A model generated the notes under the pieces. It worked only from the letters and a program-made list of their open reading frames with translations. It made no database searches and was not told where the DNA came from. Below, in pieces: positions 1,260 through 35,774 of a DNA stretch of 35,774 nt. This DNA comes from a virus (lineage: Duplodnaviria > Caudoviricetes), in IMG/VR virus record IMGVR_UViG_3300032257_000067, positions 1 to 35,774 of that record; one strand, written 5' to 3'. Both the position numbers and the translations under genes were made by a program. The stretch's first letter is position 1, and each line of letters starts with the position of its first letter.

Positions 1260-1609
1260 TGAGCACAGCCCCAGAAATACAGGAAAAATCTGTTTCAGAG
1301 GTTAGAAATGTGGCGGTTTCTTTCTCAGGCAAGTTAGACAGCGGCGAATTGTTAACCGGCACCCCTGTTTTGTCTGTTATCAGCCCGTCTGTTTCGCCTG
1401 AAGATATCACCTTAAGCAATCCGATTGTTAATACAGCGGCCCTCACGATTAGCGGCGTATCTACCCCAATCGGTGAGGCGGTACAGTTTAAGGTCACAGG
1501 CGGTACAGTGGCCAATTCCCCTTACATTCTCGGTGTCAGTTGTGGCACTGATGCAACCCCCGCTCAAACGCTCTACGGGCGCGTTACTTTACAACTTATT
1601 ACTGATTAG
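1259..1609 (+). CDS. Small beta-rich virion protein, probable fibre adaptor
   Basis: 116 aa, S/T/V/G-rich, translationally coupled to the fibre gene. Function inferred from context. Confidence 0.55.
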   Translation: MSTAPEIQEKSVSEVRNVAVSFSGKLDSGELLTGTPVLSVISPSVSPEDITLSNPIVNTAALTISGVSTPIGEAVQFKVTGGTVANSPYILGVSCGTDATPAQTLYGRVTLQLITD

Positions 1610-1617
1610 GAGTTATC

Positions 1618-2028
1618 ATGGCAACGTTCAACAAATTTCAGGGTTTTATAGGCTATCTAGGATTAGGAGCCGTTAACCTCAACACCGATACATTCAATGT
1701 CTATCTGTCTAATGCCACCCCTTCAGCGTCAGCAGACGACGTGAAGACTGACCTAGCAGAGATTACCAACCAGAACGGCTACACGGCCCCAGTTGATATT
1801 CAGAATGCTTATAGTGAGGCGTCTGGTACTGGCACCATGACCGCTGTCGATGTAGTGATTACAGCTTCAGGTGGTACAGTAGGCCCCTTTCAGTATGCAG
1901 TTATCTATGACGATACCCATGCCAGCGACGTCCTTATGGGCTGGTATGATTATGGTTCAGCTATCACACTACAAGATGGTGAAACCTTTACGGTTGACTT
2001 TGGTGCTTCATTCGCTACTTATGCCTAA
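1618..2028 (+). CDS. Virion structural protein, probable fibre base/decoration
   Basis: AGGAG RBS; 136 aa acidic and beta-rich (MATFNKF...GPFQYAVIYDD...DGETFTVDF). Role inferred from context. Confidence 0.6.
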   Translation: MATFNKFQGFIGYLGLGAVNLNTDTFNVYLSNATPSASADDVKTDLAEITNQNGYTAPVDIQNAYSEASGTGTMTAVDVVITASGGTVGPFQYAVIYDDTHASDVLMGWYDYGSAITLQDGETFTVDFGASFATYA

Positions 2029-2321
2029 TGTGGAAGCATAAAGAAAGCAGACACAAACGCGGCTATGGTACTCAGTGGGAGAAGACCCGAGTCCACGTAC
2101 TATCTAGGGATATGTACCAATGCCAGGTATGCCTCAAGGCTAATCGGTTAACCCCAGCTACCCAGGTAGACCATATTATTCCTAAGTCTAAAGACGGTAC
2201 GGACGACCACACTAACCTACAGTCTATATGTGATGACTGTCATAAGGCTAAGACCTTAGAGGAGCAGGGTAAGACATTAAGGCCTAGCATAGATATAGAT
2301 GGCTATCCTATTGAGAGATAA
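2028..2321 (+). CDS. Packaging-associated HNH endonuclease (HK97 gp74-like)
   Basis: RGYG..W, CQVC, VDHIIP..GTDD..NLQSICDDCHKAKT; lies upstream of the terminase genes. Confidence 0.9.
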   Translation: MWKHKESRHKRGYGTQWEKTRVHVLSRDMYQCQVCLKANRLTPATQVDHIIPKSKDGTDDHTNLQSICDDCHKAKTLEEQGKTLRPSIDIDGYPIER

Positions 2322-2328
2322 TTAACGC

Positions 2329-2781
2329 ATGGCAATAGATTATTTTCCTATAGATATACCAGCCGCAAAGGTGCCATTAACCATAATCAGCGGACCACCG
2401 GGCGCAGGTAAGACAACCAGTATAAAGGGTAAGCGCACAGACGGTACATTAGTTATAGACTTCGCAGAGATAAAGGCCAGAGTATCAGGCTTACCTCTTT
2501 ACGTTGCAGGTGATGACTACCTTGAGGCGGCAATAGCAGAACGGAACAGAATGCTAAAAAGCATAAACGATTATGAGTCAGCCTTCTTTATTACCAACGC
2601 GCCACAATATCCTATTCGGAAGCACTGGAATGATATGCTCCAACCAGATACCTATAATGTGCTGTTAACTGAGGCTGATGTTTGCCTGGATAGAATAGCC
2701 AAAGATCCTACAAGGGCGGTAAAGAGTATGGAGTTCTGGGCCAGGCTCGTTAATCACTGGTGGGATAACTACACCACATAA
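2329..2781 (+). CDS. P-loop NTPase / kinase-like protein
   Basis: Walker A GPPGAGKT, followed by LVID and a C-terminal C..RI..D..R lid-like motif. Confidence 0.75.
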   Translation: MAIDYFPIDIPAAKVPLTIISGPPGAGKTTSIKGKRTDGTLVIDFAEIKARVSGLPLYVAGDDYLEAAIAERNRMLKSINDYESAFFITNAPQYPIRKHWNDMLQPDTYNVLLTEADVCLDRIAKDPTRAVKSMEFWARLVNHWWDNYTT

Positions 2782-2830
2782 TAAACAAACAGCATTTAAA
2801 GATATAAAAAGTGGGACAGAAAAATACTCA

Positions 2831-2885
2831 AGGGGGGTGGGTCTAAGTAAATCAATGACTTAGCAAGGACCGCCGCCTCCCAGAA
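2831..2885. other. Candidate cos packaging site
   Basis: Intergenic before TerS: G-run GGGGGGTGGGTC, inverted CTAAGT..ACTTAG, and GACCGCCGCCTCC resembling HK97-type 3' cos cores. Confidence 0.5.
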
Positions 2886-2970
2886 AAGAAGCCTTTTCGC
2901 AACAATGGAAAGGTGGGCTGTATTGACTCAATAATGTTATATATATACTGAAAGTGGGAAAGGACTATTT

Positions 2971-3366
2971 ATGGCCAAACAATCAATAGACAGCTTAAGC
3001 ATTGCCACGGTATCCATCCCGACCCGTATAGATCCGCCATCGGACCTAAGCGCACGACAAAAAGAGCTTTGGCGCGACGTGATGAATACCAAGCCGCCTG
3101 AATGGTTTGAAGATGATACTTACCCCTTGTTAAGGGCGTATGTGACTCACGTCGATACTTATGAGCGACTAAGCCAGGAAATACAAACCTATGACTTAAG
3201 CGACCCAGCGGTTGATCGTTTAATTAAGTTGCAGGACTTACAAGGTCGAGCTATGGGAAACCTGGCGGTCAAGATGCGCTTGACTCAACAATCACGCTAT
3301 ACCCCAAAAGCCGCAGCAACCGCCAACAAGAAAGCCGCCTCAGGTAAAAAACCGTGGGAGAAGTAG
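2971..3366 (+). CDS. terS: Terminase small subunit
   Basis: PPSDLS....LW and LAVKMRLTQQSR motifs; directly precedes the large subunit. Confidence 0.85.
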   Translation: MAKQSIDSLSIATVSIPTRIDPPSDLSARQKELWRDVMNTKPPEWFEDDTYPLLRAYVTHVDTYERLSQEIQTYDLSDPAVDRLIKLQDLQGRAMGNLAVKMRLTQQSRYTPKAAATANKKAASGKKPWEK

Positions 3367-4874: not shown

Positions 4875-6139
4875 TGTTCTTCAAATCAAAGCAGCCCGAG
4901 CAGAAATCAGCCGAATCCGAGCAAAAGGCGGCTACCACCGCCCTAGATCGTCTGCTCGCTACTGTCGCGGGAACCGGGGTGGCCGTAACCCCTGAGACCT
5001 GTACGCAATCGCCGACCGTTCAAGCCGTGGTCACCGCGATATCGCGACGCATGGCGATCACACCGATCCATATTTTCCAGACTAAGGAGAATAACGGTCG
5101 AGCAACCAAGGAGAAAATACCGAGTCATCCGGTAGCAAAGCTGTTGAAACAGCCGAACGAATGGCAGACCGGCGTCGATTATATTGGCGATATGGCCTCT
5201 GTTTTGGTTAGGTACGGTCGGTTTATTGCGATCAAAGGCCAGGGCAATACCGGCCCGATTAGAAAACTCTATCCGGTCAGACCTTCAGAGGTGGCGATTA
5301 AACAGGACGACATCTCAGCACCGCCTATGTTTGAACGTAACGGCCAAAGCTGGCCCATGAGTAAGATCCATTATGTCCGGGGACCGGCTCAGGACTTTAT
5401 CACGGGCGACTCACCTGTTGAAAAGATTAAAACCGCGATTGGGGTCGAGATTGCGGTCGAAGAGTATGGCGCGAGCTTTTTCAATAATGGCGCGGTGCCT
5501 TTGCAGGTCTTTGGATACGCAGAGGGGATGGGCTTCAAAACCCCGGATGAGGAAAAGACGTTTTTGCAAGATTTTAAAGCTCTATTCTCAGGCGCTAAAC
5601 GTCACAACGCGTTGATGCTCCCTAAAGGGATTGAACAGAAGCCAGGGCAAAGTGTTGAGAATAACAAAGCCCAGTTTTTAGAGACTAGAAAACTTTATCA
5701 GACCATTATCGCCGGGGCGTGGGGTGTTCCCCCTCACCTGGTCGGCAATCTTGAGAACGGCCACTACAACAACGTGGAGCAACAGGATAAAGACTTCACT
5801 TTAAATGTTATTATGCCGTATGTGCGTTATGTAGAGTCGGCAATGGAAAGAGACTTATTAACCACTGAAGACCGAAACAAGGGGATCGTGATTCGCTTTA
5901 ATATGGATTCAGTGTTAAGAGCGTCGTTTGAAGAGCGACAAGCAGGCCTCGCGGTGCAGCGAATGAATGGCATTATAAATGCGAATGACTGGCTCGAGAT
6001 TGAAGGCAGAAACCCCCGTCCTGAAGGCGATGATTATTATTATTCAGCCAACTTAATCAAAGAGGGCGAAGAGTTAGATCGCGGGCGCCCTGACCCACAA
6101 AATATTAAAGATCCAGAAGGTGATCCAGATGACGAATAA
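4871..6139 (+). CDS. HK97-family portal protein
   Basis: G.SP, FFNNGAVP, AQFLETRK, IAGAWGVPPHLVG, NNVEQQ motifs. Confidence 0.95.
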   Translation: MMFFKSKQPEQKSAESEQKAATTALDRLLATVAGTGVAVTPETCTQSPTVQAVVTAISRRMAITPIHIFQTKENNGRATKEKIPSHPVAKLLKQPNEWQTGVDYIGDMASVLVRYGRFIAIKGQGNTGPIRKLYPVRPSEVAIKQDDISAPPMFERNGQSWPMSKIHYVRGPAQDFITGDSPVEKIKTAIGVEIAVEEYGASFFNNGAVPLQVFGYAEGMGFKTPDEEKTFLQDFKALFSGAKRHNALMLPKGIEQKPGQSVENNKAQFLETRKLYQTIIAGAWGVPPHLVGNLENGHYNNVEQQDKDFTLNVIMPYVRYVESAMERDLLTTEDRNKGIVIRFNMDSVLRASFEERQAGLAVQRMNGIINANDWLEIEGRNPRPEGDDYYYSANLIKEGEELDRGRPDPQNIKDPEGDPDDE

Positions 6140-6875
6140 AAACATAACTTGCCCGCTAGAGATTAAAGCCTTAAGCAAACGCGAGTTTGAGGGCTACGGC
6201 TCGATTTTTGGCAATAAGGATTTAGGGGATGATGTCGTGGTCCAGGGGGCATTTAGACGGACGCTTTCAGAGCATAAAGGCGAAGACACCCTACCGATGA
6301 TGTTCTGGATGCACGATCCCTCACGGATTCCGGGCAAGTGGCTAGAAATGGAAGAAGATTCTCAAGGCTTATACGTCAAAGGCGTGTTAGCCGATACCCC
6401 GTTAGGGAATGAGATCCATACCTTATTGGGCATGAAGGCAGTATCGGGGCTTTCAATCGGGTATATCCCGAGAGATCAGGACTTCAACAATGACGGCGTG
6501 AGGCTGATCAAAGATGCAGACCTGTTAGAAACCTCGATTGTATCTATCCCAATGAACCCCTTGGCGCAAATAGCACATGCTAAGTCACGGCTTTCAGAGC
6601 GTGGTGAATATGTGCCAGGCCAAGACGAACTCGCGTCCTTGAAACGTGAATGCGAGCAGTTTTTCAGAGAGAAGGGTTTTAGTAAAAGCCTTTCCACAAT
6701 GTACGTTTCCAATATGTTCAAGTCCGGTGTGACATCGGATGAACCCAAGCCTGACATCAGCGGAGTGAGTCTGGATGATGAAATCAGAGCACAGTTAGCG
6801 GTTGACTCTTACAAGGAGAATCAAACGTTAGATTTTATCAATCAATTTAGACAGAGGACCTTTAAAAATGGCTAA
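6120..6875 (+). CDS. HK97-type prohead protease
   Basis: FEGYGSIFGNKD, MFWMHD..RIPGKW, GLSIGY, ETSIVSIPMNPLA. Confidence 0.95.
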   Translation: MIQMTNKNITCPLEIKALSKREFEGYGSIFGNKDLGDDVVVQGAFRRTLSEHKGEDTLPMMFWMHDPSRIPGKWLEMEEDSQGLYVKGVLADTPLGNEIHTLLGMKAVSGLSIGYIPRDQDFNNDGVRLIKDADLLETSIVSIPMNPLAQIAHAKSRLSERGEYVPGQDELASLKRECEQFFREKGFSKSLSTMYVSNMFKSGVTSDEPKPDISGVSLDDEIRAQLAVDSYKENQTLDFINQFRQRTFKNG

Positions 6876-8172
6876 TGTTATTAATGAAGCACTAGAGGAA
6901 ATCGGCAAAGACGTGATCGAGATGCGTTCCGCGCACGAAAAATCCCTTGAAGAGCTTAAAAAAGAAAACAAAACCCGCGCCGCTGAGCTGGAACAACAGT
7001 CAGACCGCGCTAATTCTCACATCGACGCACTGACGGAACAGGTCAAAGGTCTGGTCGCGCAGAAAGAAAAAGACCAGAATCGGATCGAAATCCTGGAAGC
7101 GGTTGCAGACCGTCCGAAAGGCACCAAGACCGAGCAGTTGGAAGCCAAGCAGCTTAATGTGTTTGAAAAATGCGTCCGCGCTGGTATGGTCGATCAACAG
7201 CTTAACGCTGAATACAAAGACCTAACCGACAAGATCCACAAAGCCAAGATGGAAGCTAAAGACGTCGTTATTGGTACGGCTATTCTTGGTGGCAACGCGG
7301 TTCCTGAGGTGATCTCAACTTCTATCGAGAAGCTGGTTGTTAATCATTCCGCTATTGTCGATGAAGTTAAAATCGTTAATTCTGGAACATCAGACTATAA
7401 CGAACTGGTTACCATTCGCGGTGCTAACGGTGGCTTTGTGGCTGAAGACGGATCACGCACTAAAACCACCAACCCGAACCTTCGCAAAGTGACTGTGACC
7501 CACGGTGAGCTGTACGCTTATCCTAAAGTTAGCAACTGGTCACTTAATGACATTTTCTTTAATGTCGTTAACTGGTTGCAAGAAGACGTCGCGGATACCT
7601 TCGCGGTTTCACTGTCTACCGCGATTCACGCGGGCAACGGTACTAATCAACCTACAGGGATGACAAACTCAGCACCGACCAACGGTGACGACTACGCTTC
7701 ACCTTTACGTGCTGCGGCGGTTTACGAGTACATTGCAACAGGTAGCTCGCCGACTTCGACCGCACTTGGCGGTGATGATCTGATCGATCTACAGGTTGCA
7801 CTGAAAGCGCGTTATCAAGCTAATGCTAAGTGGACCATGAATTCGACTACAGTCGGCGCAGTGCGTAAGCTGAAAGATAGTAATAACCAGTACCTATGGC
7901 AGCCCTCTTATCAAGCGGGCCAGCCTGATATGTTACTAGGTAAACCTATCTTTATCTGGGAAGACATGGCGAACGACGGCGCGGCAAACGCGTTGCCTGT
8001 TGCTTATGGCGACTTTGCGCGGGCGTATGTCTTAGCGCGAATCGGCTCTATGGGCATGGTACGTGACGAAGTGACTGCACCTGGTTATGTTAACTTCTTC
8101 ACTTATCAGCGTTATGGTGGTATTCCACTTAATAACGACGCTGTTAAGTTCTTGAAATTAGCCGCTAGCTAA
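6868..8172 (+). CDS. HK97-fold major capsid protein with N-terminal scaffold (delta) domain
   Basis: Coiled-coil N-terminus; GG.AVPE, GNGTNQPTG, LKDSNNQYLWQP, LLGKPI, YGDF, RYGG. Confidence 0.95.
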   Translation: MANVINEALEEIGKDVIEMRSAHEKSLEELKKENKTRAAELEQQSDRANSHIDALTEQVKGLVAQKEKDQNRIEILEAVADRPKGTKTEQLEAKQLNVFEKCVRAGMVDQQLNAEYKDLTDKIHKAKMEAKDVVIGTAILGGNAVPEVISTSIEKLVVNHSAIVDEVKIVNSGTSDYNELVTIRGANGGFVAEDGSRTKTTNPNLRKVTVTHGELYAYPKVSNWSLNDIFFNVVNWLQEDVADTFAVSLSTAIHAGNGTNQPTGMTNSAPTNGDDYASPLRAAAVYEYIATGSSPTSTALGGDDLIDLQVALKARYQANAKWTMNSTTVGAVRKLKDSNNQYLWQPSYQAGQPDMLLGKPIFIWEDMANDGAANALPVAYGDFARAYVLARIGSMGMVRDEVTAPGYVNFFTYQRYGGIPLNNDAVKFLKLAAS

Positions 8173-8173
8173 G

Positions 8174-8806
8174 TTGTTTAGGCACTACCAAGACAAGATG
8201 ATCCGGGGTTACGAGGACAAGACCTTTGTCCTTGTGGCTTCCGGGCCTTCTTTAACACAGGAACAGGTTGATCAATGCCGGGGAAAGGCCCAGATTGTTG
8301 TTATAAACGACAATTACAAGATTGCCCCATTTGCCGATCACTTATACGCGTGTGACCAGACGTGGTGGCTATGGCATGAAGACGATCCCGAATTATTAGC
8401 CTTTAAAGGCAAGAAATGGACCCAGACATCAAGCTGGGACGACGAGATCCGCAAGCGGATTAGAAAGAAACATGATTTAACATTTATTCAAAGCAAGGCC
8501 GAGCCGGGACTCTCTACCGATCCCAATATCATCCACCAAGGCAGCAATTCAGGCTATCAAGCGATCAATTTGGCTTACCACTTAGGGGCTAAAAAGATTC
8601 TGTTAATCGGTTATGATATGCAGCGCACTAATGATAAAGCGCATTGGTTTGGCGATCACCCTGATAAGGGTCAAACGAATTACAGCAAATTTACTAAGTA
8701 TTACAACACGTTAGCAAAGCAGGATTTAGACGTAGAGATTATTAACTGTACTACACAGACGGCGTTAACGTGCTTCCCTAGAAAGGAATTAAAAGACGTC
8801 TTGTAA
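8174..8806 (+). CDS. DUF115/Maf-like putative glycosyltransferase, paralog 1
   Basis: ASGPSL, VIND, LYACD..WW, NSGYQAINLAYHLGAKKILLIGYDM, HWFGDH, INCT. Start may be ATG 8198. Confidence 0.7.
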   Translation: MFRHYQDKMIRGYEDKTFVLVASGPSLTQEQVDQCRGKAQIVVINDNYKIAPFADHLYACDQTWWLWHEDDPELLAFKGKKWTQTSSWDDEIRKRIRKKHDLTFIQSKAEPGLSTDPNIIHQGSNSGYQAINLAYHLGAKKILLIGYDMQRTNDKAHWFGDHPDKGQTNYSKFTKYYNTLAKQDLDVEIINCTTQTALTCFPRKELKDVL

Positions 8807-8829
8807 TGCTGTGACCATTGGTCTATATT
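8801..8829 (+). promoter_or_regulatory. Sigma70-like promoter of the RAMP cassette with a palindromic operator in the spacer
   Basis: TTGTAA (8801-8806), 17 bp, TATATT (8824-8829); inverted repeat GACCA-T-TGGTC at 8813-8823. Confidence 0.6.
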
Positions 8830-8879
8830 ATCTCTCAGAAGCCGTGGCGATTGGCCGTGGCGTACAGGAGAGAAAGACA

Positions 8880-9482
8880 ATGGCTAAAGCTAAAACAGAT
8901 GCAGAAATTTCCATAATGGAAATCAAGCAAGGTGAGATAGAATTTTGTATTAAAAGCACTTCCCCGTTGATTTACCATCGAATGGGTGAGAAAGCAAAAA
9001 GAGAGCTTTTATTCCCAAAAGGCCGCAAGACAGCAGCCGATAAAGCAACAAGTATTAAACATAATCCTATCGAAGAGTATCGAGATACGGTTTACCGTAG
9101 CAAGCAAAAAGAAACCCTGCTAATGGTTCCGTCTGTTATGTTTAAGGCTGCTATTAGTAGCGCAGCACTAGACATCCCTGGCGCAACTAAAGCGCAAATA
9201 GGTCGCTTGGTTTGGGTGATGGGTGATGAGGTTCCTGTTTATGGGGTTCCTGAGTTATTAATGTCTACGGTTAGATCGTCCGACATGAACCGCACTCCAG
9301 ATATACGCACAAGAGCCATCTTGCCAGAATGGGCTTGCTCTATTCGAGTTAGATATATCAAGCCAAACATCAGCGAGCAATCTATTGTTAATTTGGTTGC
9401 GTCTGCCGGTATCATTACAGGCATCGGTGACTATCGACAGCAGAAGGGTAAAACCTCTTATGGTCAATTTGAGCTTGGTTAA
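8880..9482 (+). CDS. Stand-alone RAMP/Cas7-like RNA-binding protein (VIPR-like effector candidate), 200 aa
   Basis: AGGAG RBS before ATG 8880. RAMP-type motif order: IKSTSPLIYH, LMVPSVMFKAAI, and C-terminal Gly-rich loop GIGDYRQQKGKTSYGQF. Immediately followed by the pentamer array. Confidence 0.7.
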   Translation: MAKAKTDAEISIMEIKQGEIEFCIKSTSPLIYHRMGEKAKRELLFPKGRKTAADKATSIKHNPIEEYRDTVYRSKQKETLLMVPSVMFKAAISSAALDIPGATKAQIGRLVWVMGDEVPVYGVPELLMSTVRSSDMNRTPDIRTRAILPEWACSIRVRYIKPNISEQSIVNLVASAGIITGIGDYRQQKGKTSYGQFELG

Positions 9483-9645
9483 GTTGAGTCTGTTCTGTTA
9501 AGTTCGGTTAAGCTAAGTTTGGTTTTGTCTGTTGTGTTTTGTTTGGTTATGTTGCGATTGGTTTGGTTATGTTGTGCTTTGTCTGCTGGGTTTGGTTGCG
9601 CCGCGTTGAGTTGGGATGGGTTACATTCGGTTACGTTGAGTCTGT
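9473..9645 (+). ncRNA. GTT-NN pentamer array 1 (putative guide-RNA array): short unit 9473-9491, unit A 9492-9530, unit B 9531-9584, unit C 9585-9643
   Basis: Strict 5-nt periodicity with a near-constant triplet (mostly GTT) plus a variable dinucleotide. Units A, B and C have 7, 10 and 11 pentamers, each closed by GTCT. RNA role is inferred. Confidence 0.7.
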
Positions 9646-9834
9646 ATGGAAAAAGATAAATTAAAAGAATTAAGAAAAAAGGTCGGCTTATCATTAGCTG
9701 ATGCTGCAAAGCGCGTACACGTAACACCTAGAACATGGGCAAGGTATGAGGCTGGCGATAGGTCAATCCCAGATGGCGTTGTCCATTTATTTTGTTTAAC
9801 TAGTGGGATTAATCCCGATGAATATTTGAAATGA
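9646..9834 (+). CDS. Small XRE-type HTH regulator (Aca-like)
   Basis: LRKKVGLSLADAAKRVHVTPRTWARYEAGDRSIP helix-turn-helix; 62 aa; sits between the two arrays. Confidence 0.85.
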   Translation: MEKDKLKELRKKVGLSLADAAKRVHVTPRTWARYEAGDRSIPDGVVHLFCLTSGINPDEYLK

Positions 9835-9892
9835 CTTGGTTAAGTTCCGTTGAGTTTAGTTTTGTTGAGTTCTGTTTAGTTTGGTCTGTTTA
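9834..9892 (+). ncRNA. GTT-NN pentamer array 2 (unit D 9834-9887)
   Basis: ACTTG, then nine GTT-NN pentamers, then GTCT and one further GTTTA. Confidence 0.7.
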
Positions 9893-9894
9893 AT

Positions 9895-10521
9895 ATGTTA
9901 GCTGTTATCTTGGGCACTGGCCCCAGCCTCACCCCTGACCAGCTTGAACACGTCAAGCAGGCGCAAGCAGCGGGCAAGTGTAAAGTCTTTGGCATGAATA
10001 ACACTTGGATGGATGCCAAGCTAGACGTTTTTCTTGCCTGTAATCCTGAATACTATTCCCACTTTTGGGATAAGGGCTTAAAGGATTACCCATGCGAGAA
10101 GTGGACGTGGGACAAGTCAACGGCAACCAAATACGATATAACTCATATCCACGGCAAATGGGGCGACGGTTTTAGTAAGACTCACTTGCACTATGGGCAT
10201 TCAAGCGGCTTCCAGGCACCCGGTCTGGCTTATTACATGGGATTTAGAAAGCTAATCCTTTTAGGGTACGATATGGGCTATGCCCCAGACTATAACGGGA
10301 AAACCAGGCAGATTGGGAGTAAGCCTAGACACTATTTCGGCGAATATCCCTCGCAGCTTCAGCACTGGCCATCAGTAAAGGTCAAAGACGGGGTTTTCAC
10401 GGAATTGATTGAGCAATTCGAGAAGGTCAAAGAAATTAACACCGACTTAGAGATTGTTAACTGTACACCGGGGAGCTATATGACCTGTTTCCCCATGATG
10501 GATATTAAAGAGGCTTTATGA
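9895..10521 (+). CDS. DUF115/Maf-like putative glycosyltransferase, paralog 2
   Basis: GTGPSL, GMNN, LACN, SSGFQAPGLAYYMGFRKLILLGYDM, HYFGEY, VNCT; colinear with the 8174 protein. Confidence 0.7.
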   Translation: MLAVILGTGPSLTPDQLEHVKQAQAAGKCKVFGMNNTWMDAKLDVFLACNPEYYSHFWDKGLKDYPCEKWTWDKSTATKYDITHIHGKWGDGFSKTHLHYGHSSGFQAPGLAYYMGFRKLILLGYDMGYAPDYNGKTRQIGSKPRHYFGEYPSQLQHWPSVKVKDGVFTELIEQFEKVKEINTDLEIVNCTPGSYMTCFPMMDIKEAL

Positions 10522-10599
10522 TCCCTATCAATGTTTATTGGGCTATATATGTATGGGACGCTACTTTGTTCGCGATCTATGGGAGTGGTTAGAGTTATT

Positions 10600-10914
10600 A
10601 TGAAGGTTAAGACAGTCGCAGCGACAACAAATAAAACAGAGAGACCCTTCTCAGCCAACAACCTAGATCAATTAGCGAAAACCGCGCCAGGGGTTCCGGT
10701 TACGGTAGACTTTGATCCAGATCAGGTTATTGGTAAAATTATCTCTGCAAAGGTTGTCAATGGAGAGCTTGAAATAATAGCCGATATCAAAAATATTGAT
10801 TTAACAGATCAATATATCGTGCCAGGTTATAGGCTGCCAAACTATGATAGCGTAACATTTGGCTTGACACGCGACCCTGTTGATCTATCTGTAAGTAAAG
10901 CAGAAGAACTATGA
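10600..10914 (+). CDS. Hypothetical protein, weak resemblance to a prohead-protease-like fold
   Basis: PVTVDFD...IGKIISAKVVNGEL pattern; ATG 10600 preferred over 10531; ATGA overlap with the next gene. Confidence 0.45.
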   Translation: MKVKTVAATTNKTERPFSANNLDQLAKTAPGVPVTVDFDPDQVIGKIISAKVVNGELEIIADIKNIDLTDQYIVPGYRLPNYDSVTFGLTRDPVDLSVSKAEEL

Positions 10915-11489
10915 TCCCCGTCTACATCGGCATATCTAAACGCTTTGACATGATCAAAGGCATGACCGAGCGCAGCATTCTCGCGCACACGAAAGAAAAG
11001 GTAGAGATTAAACACCTTTACCCGGTCACAGAAAGCGGGTGTACTGGTTTTAGTGACGTACGTTTTCAAATTGAATACGGGATATATCTAGATTGTGACA
11101 TGATTGTGTTGGCGGATATTGCTGAGCTATGGGCTTACCGCAAGAAAGATAAGTATGTCTGTATGCGTGACGGATCGACCGAGGTCGCGGTGATTGATTT
11201 CAGGAATAAGAAAAGCCCTTGTAGAAACAAGAAGCAAATCAACGCCTTACCAAAAGCATTTGATATTTCTTTGGACTGGAACACAGAAGACTATAATTAT
11301 TTTCCGAATAAGCCTCTCCCCAAGGACATGAAGCTATTTCATTTCACCAGTTTAGCGACACAGCCTTGGTTATATAAGCACCCTAATAATGAGGCGGTTG
11401 CACTGTATGAACAGTACGCAGCCAAACAGAAAGCCAAAAAGAAAGCCAAAAAGAAAAGGGCCAAGCGTGTCAAAAACCAGACTGTTTAA
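10911..11489 (+). CDS. GT-A (GT8-like) glycosyltransferase with Lys-rich tail
   Basis: IPVYIG, TGFS..RF, IYLDCDMIVLADIAELW (DXD), WN, LFHFTSLATQPW. Confidence 0.8.
   Translation: MIPVYIGISKRFDMIKGMTERSILAHTKEKVEIKHLYPVTESGCTGFSDVRFQIEYGIYLDCDMIVLADIAELWAYRKKDKYVCMRDGSTEVAVIDFRNKKSPCRNKKQINALPKAFDISLDWNTEDYNYFPNKPLPKDMKLFHFTSLATQPWLYKHPNNEAVALYEQYAAKQKAKKKAKKKRAKRVKNQTV
11421..11456 (+). repeat. 3 x 12-bp tandem repeat GCCAAA(C/A)AGAAA encoding AKQK-AKKK-AKKK
   Basis: Directly visible. Confidence 0.8.
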
Positions 11490-12138
11490 AGGGTCGCTTC
11501 CATGGTCCAACAGGTCAGATTGGCTAATGCCTGCAAACAGTCATCGCCTAGAAGTTAGTTTTACAAAAGGCCCAAACGATGTAGACGCGGCGCTTGAAAT
11601 GCTTTTGCCGTTATTAAAGAAGCGGCGAACCTGTATCCAGGCGGGGGGATGTATTGGTATTTGGCCCTTAAGACTTTCGCAAGTATTCGATCATGTGCAT
11701 GCGTTTGAATTAGATCCAATTAATTATGAGTGTTTGATTCATAACGCAGACGAGGAAAATATAACCCCCATTCATTCAGCTTTAAGTTATAAGGCAGGCG
11801 AAACGGTGGGCTATAGGCTGGACGAAGGCGAAAGGCAAAACCCCGGGGCGACTTATGTCATCAATGAAGGGGATGTCCCTACGGTAAAGATTGACGATCT
11901 TGGATTGGATGATGTTGATTTAATTTATCTGGATATTGAGGGGTCCGAGTCCTTAGCCCTACTAGGAGCAACGGAAACGATCAAACGCTGTAAGCCGATT
12001 ATCGGGTTAGAGGACAAAGGACACCACATAAAGCAAGGCAATCCTGATCCGGTTAAATATTTGATTAAGCAGCTTGATTACCGCGTACACGGTAAGCCCT
12101 CACGATTAGATGTCATATTGGTGCCGAATGATGAATGA
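11467..12138 (+). CDS. FkbM-family SAM-dependent methyltransferase
   Basis: IQAGGCIGIW, VHAFELDPINYECL, IDDLGL..VDLIYLDIEGSE..AL.GA..TI...KPII. Start uncertain (11389 or GTG 11467). Confidence 0.85.
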   Translation: MSKTRLFKGSLPWSNRSDWLMPANSHRLEVSFTKGPNDVDAALEMLLPLLKKRRTCIQAGGCIGIWPLRLSQVFDHVHAFELDPINYECLIHNADEENITPIHSALSYKAGETVGYRLDEGERQNPGATYVINEGDVPTVKIDDLGLDDVDLIYLDIEGSESLALLGATETIKRCKPIIGLEDKGHHIKQGNPDPVKYLIKQLDYRVHGKPSRLDVILVPNDE

Positions 12139-12856
12139 TCTGACCGTCTTTTGTGTTTACTGGGGCGACAAGTATGACAAGGGCTATGTCTACGCTTTAC
12201 GAGATGCCGTTGAGGTTAATCTGTCTGTCCCTCATCGGTTTGTTTGCATTACTACTGATTATTTCAAGGGTATTGAGACACGCAAACCTTATGCGCCTTA
12301 TTCCGGTTGGTGGTCTAAGCTTAATCTGTTTGCACCTCGCATGGCGACCGGACCAAGCCTCTATTTTGATCTTGATGTTGTTATCACTGGCAATCTAGAC
12401 TATCTGGTTGAGTACACAGAGCCAAAGGAATATATAAACCATAGGTACAACATAACTGAGGTTGCATACTTAGCGGCCCCGGCTAATTGGGCGCAATCAG
12501 GACATGGTGGGATTCAATCCTCGGTAATGGCCTGGGGCGGGAATTGGACACACCCTTTTGATCAATTCAAAAGCCAGTGGCCCGATATTAGGGAGCGCTT
12601 ATGGGGTGATCAGGAGTACCTCTGGGAATTGTTAGGAGATAACTGGACGCGACTGCCTCATGTGGGGTCGTATAAGTACCACGTAAGCCCCGCACAAGCC
12701 ATACCAGACGATATGGCGGTATGTGTATTCCACGGTAAACCGGACCCTCACGAGGTAACAGACCCTTGCATATTGTCTTACACATCAGCCCTACGCTCGT
12801 ACATCAGCACGAGCACAGCGAATGGTTTACAGAAGGCCTCAAGCGCCACGGCTTAA
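12128..12856 (+). CDS. GT-A glycosyltransferase
   Basis: CVYWGDKY, FVCITTD, GWWSKLNLF, LYFDLDVVI (DXD), SSVMAW, GDQEYL, VFHGKPDPH. Confidence 0.8.
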   Translation: MMNDLTVFCVYWGDKYDKGYVYALRDAVEVNLSVPHRFVCITTDYFKGIETRKPYAPYSGWWSKLNLFAPRMATGPSLYFDLDVVITGNLDYLVEYTEPKEYINHRYNITEVAYLAAPANWAQSGHGGIQSSVMAWGGNWTHPFDQFKSQWPDIRERLWGDQEYLWELLGDNWTRLPHVGSYKYHVSPAQAIPDDMAVCVFHGKPDPHEVTDPCILSYTSALRSYISTSTANGLQKASSATA

Positions 12857-13416
12857 ACCTCGATATCACAACCGACCCCCACAAAGAAGGGGACGTTCAT
12901 ATCGTCAGCGGGCCACACTATGCCAAGCGGTATTGGCTGGATCACCCAAAAACCTTACTCATTGACAGGGCTTATCATCCGAATAAGCAGATCAAATCTG
13001 GTCAGTGGGTAAGTGAGGATTATGTCTCGGTAGGCTGGATGAATAAGGACGGCGGCAGGGATTTTAGAAAAACAGAATCTAGGGGATCGTATTCGATCCA
13101 GCACCAAGCCGGTGACAAAGGGACTATTTTTCTAAAAGACTACGGCGGCCCCGAAGCAATGGCGGATACCGTGAGACTTCACCCAGCCGAAAAACAGTAT
13201 CCAGAATCCTTAGAAGATGCCCTTAAACGTCACAAGACCGCTATCGGGTTTAGGACGACGGCCCTTGTTAAAGCGGGTTTAATGGGCTTAGATATTGTAT
13301 GCTTAGACAAACAAAATATTATGGCCCAGCCGGATTGGTTGGAATTATTACCGAGTGCTGACTGGCACTATTCAGAGATTCAATCCGGGGAAGCATGGGA
13401 GTTCTTATGTCAATAA
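12766..13416 (+). CDS. Putative GT-B / capsule-biosynthesis-like glycosyltransferase
   Basis: LLIDRAY, VSVGW, RLHP, SLEDAL....AIGFRTTALVKAGLMG, WHYSEIQSGEAW; lies in the glycan block. Confidence 0.55.
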   Translation: MHIVLHISPTLVHQHEHSEWFTEGLKRHGLNLDITTDPHKEGDVHIVSGPHYAKRYWLDHPKTLLIDRAYHPNKQIKSGQWVSEDYVSVGWMNKDGGRDFRKTESRGSYSIQHQAGDKGTIFLKDYGGPEAMADTVRLHPAEKQYPESLEDALKRHKTAIGFRTTALVKAGLMGLDIVCLDKQNIMAQPDWLELLPSADWHYSEIQSGEAWEFLCQ

Positions 13417-34409: not shown

Positions 34410-35213
34410 ATGGCTCTGGCACTCCACGCGCGCGAAAATAACTTTAACGGGACAGTTTTTAGAGGGGATTGCGTCGAGATCCGGGCCAATGGGTCACCCT
34501 TAACCCCTAAAGAAGAAGCCGCTTTTGTGGTGGCTAACGTCACCGACGCGCTATTAGGCACCCCGATCCCCACGGTGGGCCCAGACTTTACTTTTCAAGA
34601 TTACGGCCAGAGATGGTTGTTTGAATTAGATTATTCAGTATTAAATTCTAATCTCCCGCAAGACCGACACAATGTCAGAATGACCAACCCCCTTGCGAGT
34701 ACGTTGGTAGATGGGATTAGCGGTAAGGCTTTAGCCAGAATTAATGCACTGTTAGCAGCCTGGAACGCATCAACCCCGGTTATCACTCAGAATCAAATAG
34801 ACTTTGAGATTGATATTTATCAGGCGATTATTTCTCAGGGTTTTTGGAGTGTTGATCCTGTCCGTTTGTCCGAGATTGGTTTTACCCAGGTAAATTACAC
34901 CCAGGCGGGCGGCATTCACCGAGTCCAAGCCGACTACACAGGTAAAAACTCCACCACTATTGAGCGTCGAGTTATGGCCGAGGGTGGCACGGTGATCAGC
35001 AATACCGGAACCGTGATCGTGTTTGATGTAACACGCGCCACGGTCAGGACTAAATTTCTAGATGATGTAAAGTTTATGTCGCGCGGCGTTACTAGTAAAA
35101 ATCGCTGGTATGTCGGCAACGGTGTTATGAATGCCATCGAAGGCGCAGGCGGGTACATGGACACCGATCTAGCCACGTATAACGGATACATTCGGGATAA
35201 GGTCGCGGACTAA
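34410..35213 (+). CDS. Hypothetical protein, probable virion component of the fibre module
   Basis: 267 aa; AGGA RBS; TAATG-coupled to the fibre gene. Confidence 0.65.
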   Translation: MALALHARENNFNGTVFRGDCVEIRANGSPLTPKEEAAFVVANVTDALLGTPIPTVGPDFTFQDYGQRWLFELDYSVLNSNLPQDRHNVRMTNPLASTLVDGISGKALARINALLAAWNASTPVITQNQIDFEIDIYQAIISQGFWSVDPVRLSEIGFTQVNYTQAGGIHRVQADYTGKNSTTIERRVMAEGGTVISNTGTVIVFDVTRATVRTKFLDDVKFMSRGVTSKNRWYVGNGVMNAIEGAGGYMDTDLATYNGYIRDKVAD

Positions 35214-35774
35214 TGGCTGAGTCTATATCCATTGTTGATCCTGACACTGGAGGCAGCCCAGCAAGGGACTACGCCAGCCTGAGCGCATGGGAAGCCGCTG
35301 AGGGCGCTGACATGGGCGCTGATGATCCGGTCGCTGAGTTACGCTGCACCTCCGGATCGGCAGATACGACCAATGTCACAATCAACGGTTTTAGCAATTA
35401 CGGCAAGATCATTATTCGGGATTATGACTCCACCGGGCGGGCCTCGACTGAATGGAGCACTAGCGTATATCGTCATTCGGGCAGTAGTTATCAGCCCATT
35501 AATTTAGCCTTAACCGATATTGAATTATGGAACTTACAGGTTGAACACAATCCTACCAGTGATGGTCATGCCTGCGTTCAATGGACTAATGTCGATATTT
35601 TAATGGACGGCTGTCACATCACCACCACCGATGTAACTAATTCCAACAACCGAGCTATAGATGCAGGCTACGTCACCGGCAACACGCTAAGCACAATTAG
35701 AAACTGCATTGTAGATGGCTTTAGCGGGACTACTCATACAGGGATTTTCCTCAATTATTATGGTACGTCTGGCG
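35213..35774 (+). CDS. 5' part of the junction-spanning fibre/spike protein
   Basis: MAESISIVDPDTGGSPARDYASLSAWEAAEG...STIRNCIVDG; open to the window end and continues at the window start. Confidence 0.85.
   Translation, partial: MAESISIVDPDTGGSPARDYASLSAWEAAEGADMGADDPVAELRCTSGSADTTNVTINGFSNYGKIIIRDYDSTGRASTEWSTSVYRHSGSSYQPINLALTDIELWNLQVEHNPTSDGHACVQWTNVDILMDGCHITTTDVTNSNNRAIDAGYVTGNTLSTIRNCIVDGFSGTTHTGIFLNYYGTSG
35688..35774. repeat. Terminal direct repeat (87 bp), copy 2
   Basis: Identical to 1-87. Confidence 0.95.

Follow-up and report, generated by a model that had tools for sequence, protein, structure and literature searches.

A staggered array of short repeats beside a stand-alone RAMP gene in a phage genome raises the question of what the units of the array are aimed at. 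Here, the question centres on the last of four units, unit D, for which an initial annotation of the locus had proposed a target in the gene directly downstream, in the form carried by relatives of the phage. The sequence analysed, hereafter the window, is a complete virus record of 35,774 bases with direct terminal repeats at its ends.

Organization of the cassette and its insertion site

The cassette consists of a Vipr-like gene, a staggered array and an HTH gene, and lies between two glycosyltransferase-like paralogues. The order between the paralogues is a promoter-like site, a 200-aa gene, units A–C, a 62-aa HTH gene and unit D:

8174..8806, + strand: first glycosyltransferase-like paralogue (phrog_4603), upstream flank, by PHROG profile
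8801..8829, + strand: sigma-70-like promoter with a palindrome in its spacer (8813–8823), by motif scan
8880..9482, + strand: Vipr-family RAMP gene, 200 aa, shortened at its C-terminus, by profile and fold model
9473..9492, + strand: remnant array unit, 3 pentamers and GTCTG, fused to the 3′ end of vipr
9492..9531, + strand: unit A, 7 pentamers and GTCTG, no target found
9531..9585, + strand: unit B, 10 pentamers and GTCTG, no target found
9585..9644, + strand: unit C, 11 pentamers and GTCTG, decodes to a major-capsid motif
9646..9834, + strand: HTH gene, 62 aa, common to a subset of related cassettes, by Pfam and homologues
9834..9888, + strand: unit D guide, ten pentamers and the invariant GTCTG, by sequence parse
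9895..10521, + strand: target gene, second paralogue, glycosyltransferase-like (phrog_4603), directly downstream of the cassette, by PHROG and Pfam

The major capsid gene (6868–8172) is followed by glycosyltransferase- and methyltransferase-like genes up to the head-tail adaptor. This stretch (8174–13416) holds six such genes, is conserved as a cluster in many related phages, and possibly serves in virion glycosylation. The glycosyltransferase label of the target gene derives from phrog_4603 (alpha-2,3-sialyltransferase, E 7.6e-20) and denotes a predicted function only; a Pfam MptE-like match of the same gene falls below the family cut-off. Orf7 of Pseudomonas phage D3 is a distant relative of this gene, and its relatives in cultured phages are only 22–26% identical.

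The two paralogues abut or overlap in 23 of the 32 related loci that hold both; the cassette is therefore an insertion, and one that is absent from most relatives. Other relatives carry unrelated small inserts between the paralogues, and L009 (3030–4990) carries at the same site a distantly related Vipr cassette with a 215-aa Vipr, an accessory gene, an HTH gene 63% identical to that of the window and six GGT guides. This variety of inserts marks the site as a hotspot of insertion. Of the 80 loci chosen by Vipr similarity alone, six (L039, L041, L044, L049, L052 and L079) also have, within the flank covered, a relative of the glycosyltransferase-like paralogues.

The HTH protein is 63–71% identical in L009, L022 and L026, and has a weak Aca2/YdiL-like Pfam match. 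The promoter scan returned one site against 2.7 expected in shuffles, which is weak taken alone; the same arrangement of promoter and palindrome precedes vipr in related HTH-bearing cassettes. Across 8801–8870, nine aligned cassettes of this kind conserve both the spacer palindrome and a short direct repeat of the leader. The palindrome is likely the operator of the HTH protein, and the HTH gene likely autoregulates the cassette through this putative site.

A Vipr protein with a shortened C-terminus

VIPR systems have been described by Yoon et al. (bioRxiv 10.64898/2026.04.26.720920), with a structure in a companion preprint (10.64898/2026.04.26.720927). A profile built from 36 homologues of the 200-aa protein (A2) matches the SUSP1 Vipr (36PP) with an E-value of 8e-4 over the G-loop region, and the predicted fold (pLDDT 75.6) resembles Csm3/Cmr RAMPs (best E 2.9e-6, TM 0.55). 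By profile and predicted fold, the protein is a Vipr, a stand-alone RAMP fold with a glycine-rich loop. The best of the related loci compared as DNA are 51–62% identical, and most of the 80 carry staggered GGY-NN arrays.

The window Vipr ends 18 residues past the G-loop motif, compared with at least 70 residues in all 69 of the related loci scored, and its homologues are 249–302 aa long among the 119 matches listed. Homologues that are 77–88% identical run ∼60 residues beyond its stop codon, which falls inside the pentamers of the remnant unit. An accessory gene is present in 77 of the 80 related loci. Neither this gene nor the missing C-terminal extension was found in the whole genome by searches in which held-out controls did score. 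We infer a single internal deletion, from the 3′ end of vipr into the array, which the remnant unit would mark. The deletion spares the whole RAMP core through its last strand, and short Viprs occur in nature (215 aa in L009; 202 aa in the SUSP1 chain). The present activity of the shortened copy is uncertain. The accessory protein of the relatives has no Pfam family, falls into unnamed atlas clusters only, and yields a single-sequence model of low confidence.

The array and the parse of unit D

Parsed from 9834, unit D consists of ten pentamers, in which the scaffold is ACT in the first and GTT in the following nine, each joined to an NN pair, and is closed by a terminal GTCTG at 9884–9888. 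The parse agrees with the initial annotation on the ten pentamers, their NN pairs and the ACT of the first. Unit D starts on the stop codon of the HTH gene and ends 6 nt upstream of the start of the target gene. Units A–C are staggered, overlapping by 1 nt at GTCTG. With 7, 10, 11 and 10 pentamers in which a fixed trinucleotide alternates with NN, units A–D have the VIPR guide format, in which about 9–16 pentamers are usual; GTT makes up the scaffold of 30 of the 38 pentamers and GGY of none. All four GTCTG terminal motifs are intact.

Over 6800–12200 the window is identical to a Logan contig that comes from its probable source run, and over 9663–9956, which includes all of unit D, to a contig obtained in a second study. 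As the contigs covering the region show no difference, unit D is not an assembly error. No independent contig bridging the vipr–array junction was found.

The same GTT/GTCTG type of array lies beside a distant Vipr in one other locus, L126, one of three matches to the pattern. There (L126 1–800), the staggered GTT array with GTCTG ends is directly upstream of a Vipr 26% identical to that of the window. The portal gene of the window contains five GKT-NN-like pentamers (5201–5225), likely by chance.

The best match of unit D in its own genome

Read with a one-base skip, unit D has its best match outside the array, over the whole 35.8-kb genome, in the target gene:

10039..10068, + strand: the phage's own version of the site that unit D matches, CNPEYYSHFW, 15/20

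The match is in the codon frame of the 9895–10521 ORF, with the skipped base at codon position 3. It is perfect in the 5′ half of the guide (10/10) and poor in the 3′ half (5/10), with the mismatches in repeats 6–9. The codon-phase match with a one-base gap is thus as first described. The chance level then given for the overall count, about 0.25, is near the 302 of 1000 dinucleotide-order shuffles that reach at least 15/20 genome-wide. A level of about 0.02 had been attached to the 11-base run; this holds for a run that starts at position 1 of the guide, and not for a run of at least 11 anywhere along it, which occurs in 155 of 1000 shuffles. Restricted to the adjacent gene, at least 15 matches are reached by 163 of 20000 shuffles in any frame and by 102 of 20000 in codon frame. 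Taken alone, the 15/20 self-match is weak.

Without a skip, unit D matches 18/20 at 35510–35529 (+ strand), in an ORF starting at 35213 that has no PHROG family. One of 3000 shuffles does as well, or about 0.005 over the 16 guide-by-skip tests. This ungapped site was rejected as a target and is probably a chance match; skip-0 matches are not enriched in relatives.

Better-fitting alleles in relatives

At the DNA level, one allele present on two contigs (L002 and L003) fits unit D at 19/20, compared to 15/20 for self, and the alleles of L015, L016, L116 and L117 fit at 18/20. Among 18 distinct non-self alleles, 7 fit better than self, 3 equally and 8 less well. The proteins P0006 and P0241 carry CNPEYYDLYW, which corresponds to up to 19/20, and two others score 18; all four matches fall at the orthologous motif. 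When shuffled guides were scored over 236 non-self homologues of the target gene, taken from the best 120 of 302 and the best 120 of 221 matches, none of 5000 reached 19 and three reached 18. The skip falls on the wobble base in the 19/20 relative site too, in frame. Around the site, L002 and L003 share the gene order of the window, and neither partial record has a Vipr match; the records with 19/20 and 18/20 alleles are fragments of 15–50% completeness without a Vipr match.

These alleles bear out the proposed target, the allele carried by relatives: homologues do match the guide better than self, at a level that shuffles do not reach. The further expectation of a perfect target in cassette-free relatives was not borne out, as no 20/20 allele appeared. 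The exact gapped pattern of unit D, which had been put forward as a query for phage contigs, had no match in IMG/VR, and the perfect pattern under codon constraint had none in the JGI metagenomes. A search for loci with the target protein alone as query also gave no match. The gene with the 19/20 site is only 47% identical to that of the window, and the real target phage is therefore probably unsampled. P0006, with the 19/20 target allele, and P0131, a Vipr 77% identical to that of the window, each lie on a Logan contig of 14,930 nt. This is probably the same contig, and the best target phage may itself carry a sister cassette.

Unit C behaves alike, as the initial annotation had indicated in calling unit D a repeat of the unit C rule:

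7432..7464, + strand: site matched by unit C in the phage's own major capsid gene, GFVAEDGSRTK, 17/22

Capsid homologues fit unit C at up to 19/22 (4 of 150), a score reached by none of 300 shuffles. The unit C site lies 1.35 kb upstream of the cassette and the unit D site 150 nt downstream. A relaxed unit C pattern had no match in IMG/VR. For units A and B, no significant target emerged from the window, from 20 related loci, or from the 150 capsid and 236 target-gene homologues.

In SUSP1, pairing of the guide starts at its 3′ end, according to the structure preprint (bioRxiv 10.64898/2026.04.26.720927). Since the mismatches to the window's own allele are in the 3′ half, its own gene is predicted to be spared by unit D, and likely is.

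Flank targeting across related cassettes

From 73 of 85 Vipr loci, 353 guides were parsed, with the single best path kept for each array cluster and hence not every guide included, and scanned all-against-all over 1.87 Mb. Unit D was matched to L002/L003 with an E-value of 2.5e-5. Four matches at E<0.001 were obtained with a skip of one base, and none with a skip of zero or two; the enrichment is thus confined to the one-base skip at the wobble position that VIPR guides use. De-duplicated near-self one-skip matches within 600 nt of a cassette edge numbered 17, against 3.3 in shuffled guides, and there was no excess at 600–1500, 1500–3000 or 3000–6500 nt.

With the window left out (340 guides, 71 cassettes), 16 matches in 13 loci remained within 600 nt, a bin picked after the top matches had been seen and a set in which some loci are near-duplicates. 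Shuffles gave a mean of 4.4 (maximum 9 in 60 shuffles) and the flanks of other loci 4.1 (maximum 7 in 30); skips of zero and two gave 4 and 6 matches. About 4 of the 16, a quarter, are therefore expected by chance. Beyond 600 nt, 21 matches were observed against 25 in shuffles. The excess in the flank persisted at a looser threshold (35 vs 13.4) and at a tighter one (9 vs 1.6); the p values of four distant-bin rows at 3e-5 and 3e-6, with a shuffle mean of 0 or unshuffled, were not used. Most guides have no flank match, including units A and B and about 95% of the 340. On these statistics, predicted flank targeting is general in the clade, and the link of target to insertion site drawn from unit D extends to related cassettes.

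The genes matched near cassettes include those for a late activator, a methyltransferase, a glycosyltransferase, a capsid protein and a head protease. L041 and L082 repeat the geometry of unit D, with a guide after the HTH gene that matches the next gene downstream. A guide of L036 scores 12/16 on self and 16/16 in L038, and one of L082 scores 18/24 on self and 21/24 in L078. L038 and L078 each have a cassette of their own in the same position; targets free of a cassette are therefore not required. Across the 16 near matches, no concentration of mismatches at the 3′ side was seen, so that 3′ escape as a general rule is unsupported.

Guides at p≤0.01 account for 3 of 44 in HTH-bearing cassettes and 4 of 306 in others. 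These counts are only suggestive of a flank effect limited to HTH-bearing cassettes, and loci without the HTH gene contribute too. The six guides of L009, whose cassette occupies the same site as that of the window, have only marginal matches to the flank families (p 0.017–0.096 among 40 tests). The strongest cross-match is that of an L075 guide (at 5300) to L074 (at 960), a one-skip match of 24/26 between two phages that both bear a Vipr.

Relation to known systems

The system fits a broad definition of VIPR but does not belong to type II. It shares with VIPR the stand-alone RAMP gene, guides of pentamers made of a fixed trinucleotide and NN, the one-base wobble skip, and a phage location with phage targets; staggered arrays with a 1-nt overlap are described in the legend of fig. 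S18 (bioRxiv 10.64898/2026.04.26.720920 / 10.64898/2026.04.26.720927). It differs from published VIPR in its GTT scaffold and GTCTG end in place of GGY, in the lack of a structured tail, in its shortened Vipr and in the missing accessory gene. The GGY scaffold of type II systems (SUSP1, P. fulva) occurs in none of the 38 pentamers. Nor is there room for their conserved ∼40-nt structured 3′ tail, with units A–C overlapping by 1 nt and unit D ending 6 nt from a start codon. A vap gene is typical of VIPR and not universal; here, the usual accessory gene of the clade is absent and an HTH gene is present. According to the structure preprint (bioRxiv 10.64898/2026.04.26.720927), the SUSP1 Vipr reads both scaffold guanines, and the window scaffold, which is never GGY, counts in this respect against unit D as a silencing guide. 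According to the text of Lopez et al. (bioRxiv 10.64898/2026.10.15.759431), SUSP1 grew less well on satellite lysogens once vap1 was lost, and the same was true for vipr. Non-canonical VIPR arrays (bioRxiv 10.64898/2026.10.21.760802) likewise place Vipr-like proteins beside other fixed trinucleotides; the examples in that text are GAC, CAC, WGT and TGH, and GTT is not among them, although fig. S10 could list it; targets are not discussed there.

The targets are of a different kind. Those of published VIPR systems are satellites, prophage switches and other VIPR loci in the preprint texts, whereas those of the window are orthologues of the genes that flank the cassette. The solo vrRNAs and anti-VIPR guides of SUSP1-family phages (Lopez et al., bioRxiv 10.64898/2026.10.15.759431) are similarly directed against relatives, with self-matches below non-self, and an internal vipr–vap deletion that leaves the guides recalls the window. 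The kin targets reported for them comprise vipr, vrRNAs and satellites, whereas the guides of the window point at ordinary neighbouring genes of the virion module, and its Vipr has kept the core. VIPR itself is already known. Guides against cassette-flanking genes, and against kin alleles of these genes, are not described in the VIPR preprint texts considered; supplementary target lists may hold cases.

The free-standing homing endonucleases of T4 (seg/mob), as treated in PMC2988022, offer another likeness: they too are intergenic selfish inserts whose target is in a conserved neighbour gene of kin, and here, too, related phages have the target in a conserved gene close to the point of insertion. 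Their marker exclusion in mixed infection is the parallel that we propose. Unlike T4 homing, the cassette carries several RNA guides, any drive would come from silencing rather than break repair, and its only genes are vipr and the HTH gene, with no site-specific nuclease (GIY-YIG, HNH or other) found.

A proposed mechanism and its alternatives

From these comparisons of sequence, we consider it reasonably probable that unit D is a VIPR-type guide that fits the glycosyltransferase-like allele of kin better than its own, and directs a Vipr filament that silences co-infecting or resident kin. The cassette is inserted between the two paralogues of a capsid-side gene module, and units C and D decode to the capsid gene upstream and the gene 150 nt downstream, with better-fitting alleles in relatives. 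In the SUSP1 work, a guide coated by Vipr binds the gapped site and represses transcription without cutting; by extrapolation, the array RNA may be cut, or read, into units that Vipr would coat, with the same effect on transcription. The targets would be kin phages that share the host. A guide against kin, aimed at a gene that the phage too needs, would be safe only when the mismatched allele travels with the cassette; as modules recombine, safety would need a tightly linked allele, which may account for the short range of the flank effect. Selection would then keep guides with next-door targets, and the guide would be passed on together with the resistant allele, as a single block that prevails in mixed infections. 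More tentatively, and with some doubt, this clade of VIPR cassettes may be a selfish, nuclease-free drive, in which guides against flank genes silence co-infecting kin and spread with linked resistant alleles.

The truncated Vipr suggests another history, which we regard as unlikely: unit D may be a relic or orphan guide that evolved against kin, left in a copy inactivated by deletion or in an array that borrows the Vipr of another phage. The short C-terminus, set against the length of all listed or scored homologues, and the loss of extension and accessory gene from the whole genome would fit such a relic, and VIPR-null phages with solo guides are described in the text of Lopez et al. (bioRxiv 10.64898/2026.10.15.759431). 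However, the RAMP core is spared, Viprs of similar length exist, the promoter, the HTH gene and the four terminal GTCTG motifs are intact, and in SUSP1 Vipr and guide alone repressed reporters (bioRxiv 10.64898/2026.04.26.720920). The partial self-matches could alternatively tune the phage's own late genes, capsid and glycosyltransferase-like, as both readable guides match genes in the cassette's own operon and some related self-matches reach 82–86% (L025 19/22, L075 15/18). Such self-regulation is quite improbable, given that a non-self allele fits better wherever one was found, that the mismatches of unit D to self fill its 3′ half, and that the self scores of 75% and 77% are below the 80% cut-off for natural targets, among which no self-targeting at ≥80% is reported (bioRxiv 10.64898/2026.04.26.720920).

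Spread akin to homing, in which a guided complex cuts the neighbour gene of cassette-free phages or stalls forks there and repair copies the cassette, would explain why the insert is missing from most relatives and why the 19/20 and 18/20 alleles come from records free of Vipr matches; the geometry is also that of intronless homing, in which hundreds to thousands of bases separate target and insertion site (PMC2988022, in the text considered). It is improbable for a cassette without a nuclease, in a clade whose accessory protein has no Pfam family and is missing here, and the better alleles of L038 and L078 are in relatives that bear a cassette. Proximity could instead reflect acquisition, with units copied or recombined from cassette-side DNA, the own allele drifting later and no selection on linkage. 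The sharp drop of the signal beyond 600 nt would agree with this, and guide acquisition is not described in the VIPR preprint texts considered; we nevertheless hold it very improbable, as writing a gapped code from DNA has no known mechanism, the unit C site is 1.35 kb away, and most guides have no flank match. That an AT-rich repeat matches a nearby gene by chance is hardly credible. The self-match is common enough in genome-wide shuffles, and the ungapped 18/20 match elsewhere illustrates that striking coincidences occur, but the 19/20 score at the orthologous site, absent from 5000 shuffles, and the replication in other cassettes count as a refutation unless that null is flawed.

Implications

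The preferred reading, of guides that silence kin through alleles of cassette-side genes, offers a rule for target prediction, which is to look next door. The natural pairs of self and non-self alleles would provide a direct test of the mismatch tolerance of VIPR, and the GTT scaffold, together with the natural C-terminal truncation, a test of the minimal needs of Vipr. The flank pattern also constrains the question of how guides are acquired, and gives a candidate for a non-cutting selfish element. If the drive reading is true, these cassettes would practise RNA-guided marker exclusion without cutting, with the renewal of their guides tied to the insertion site.
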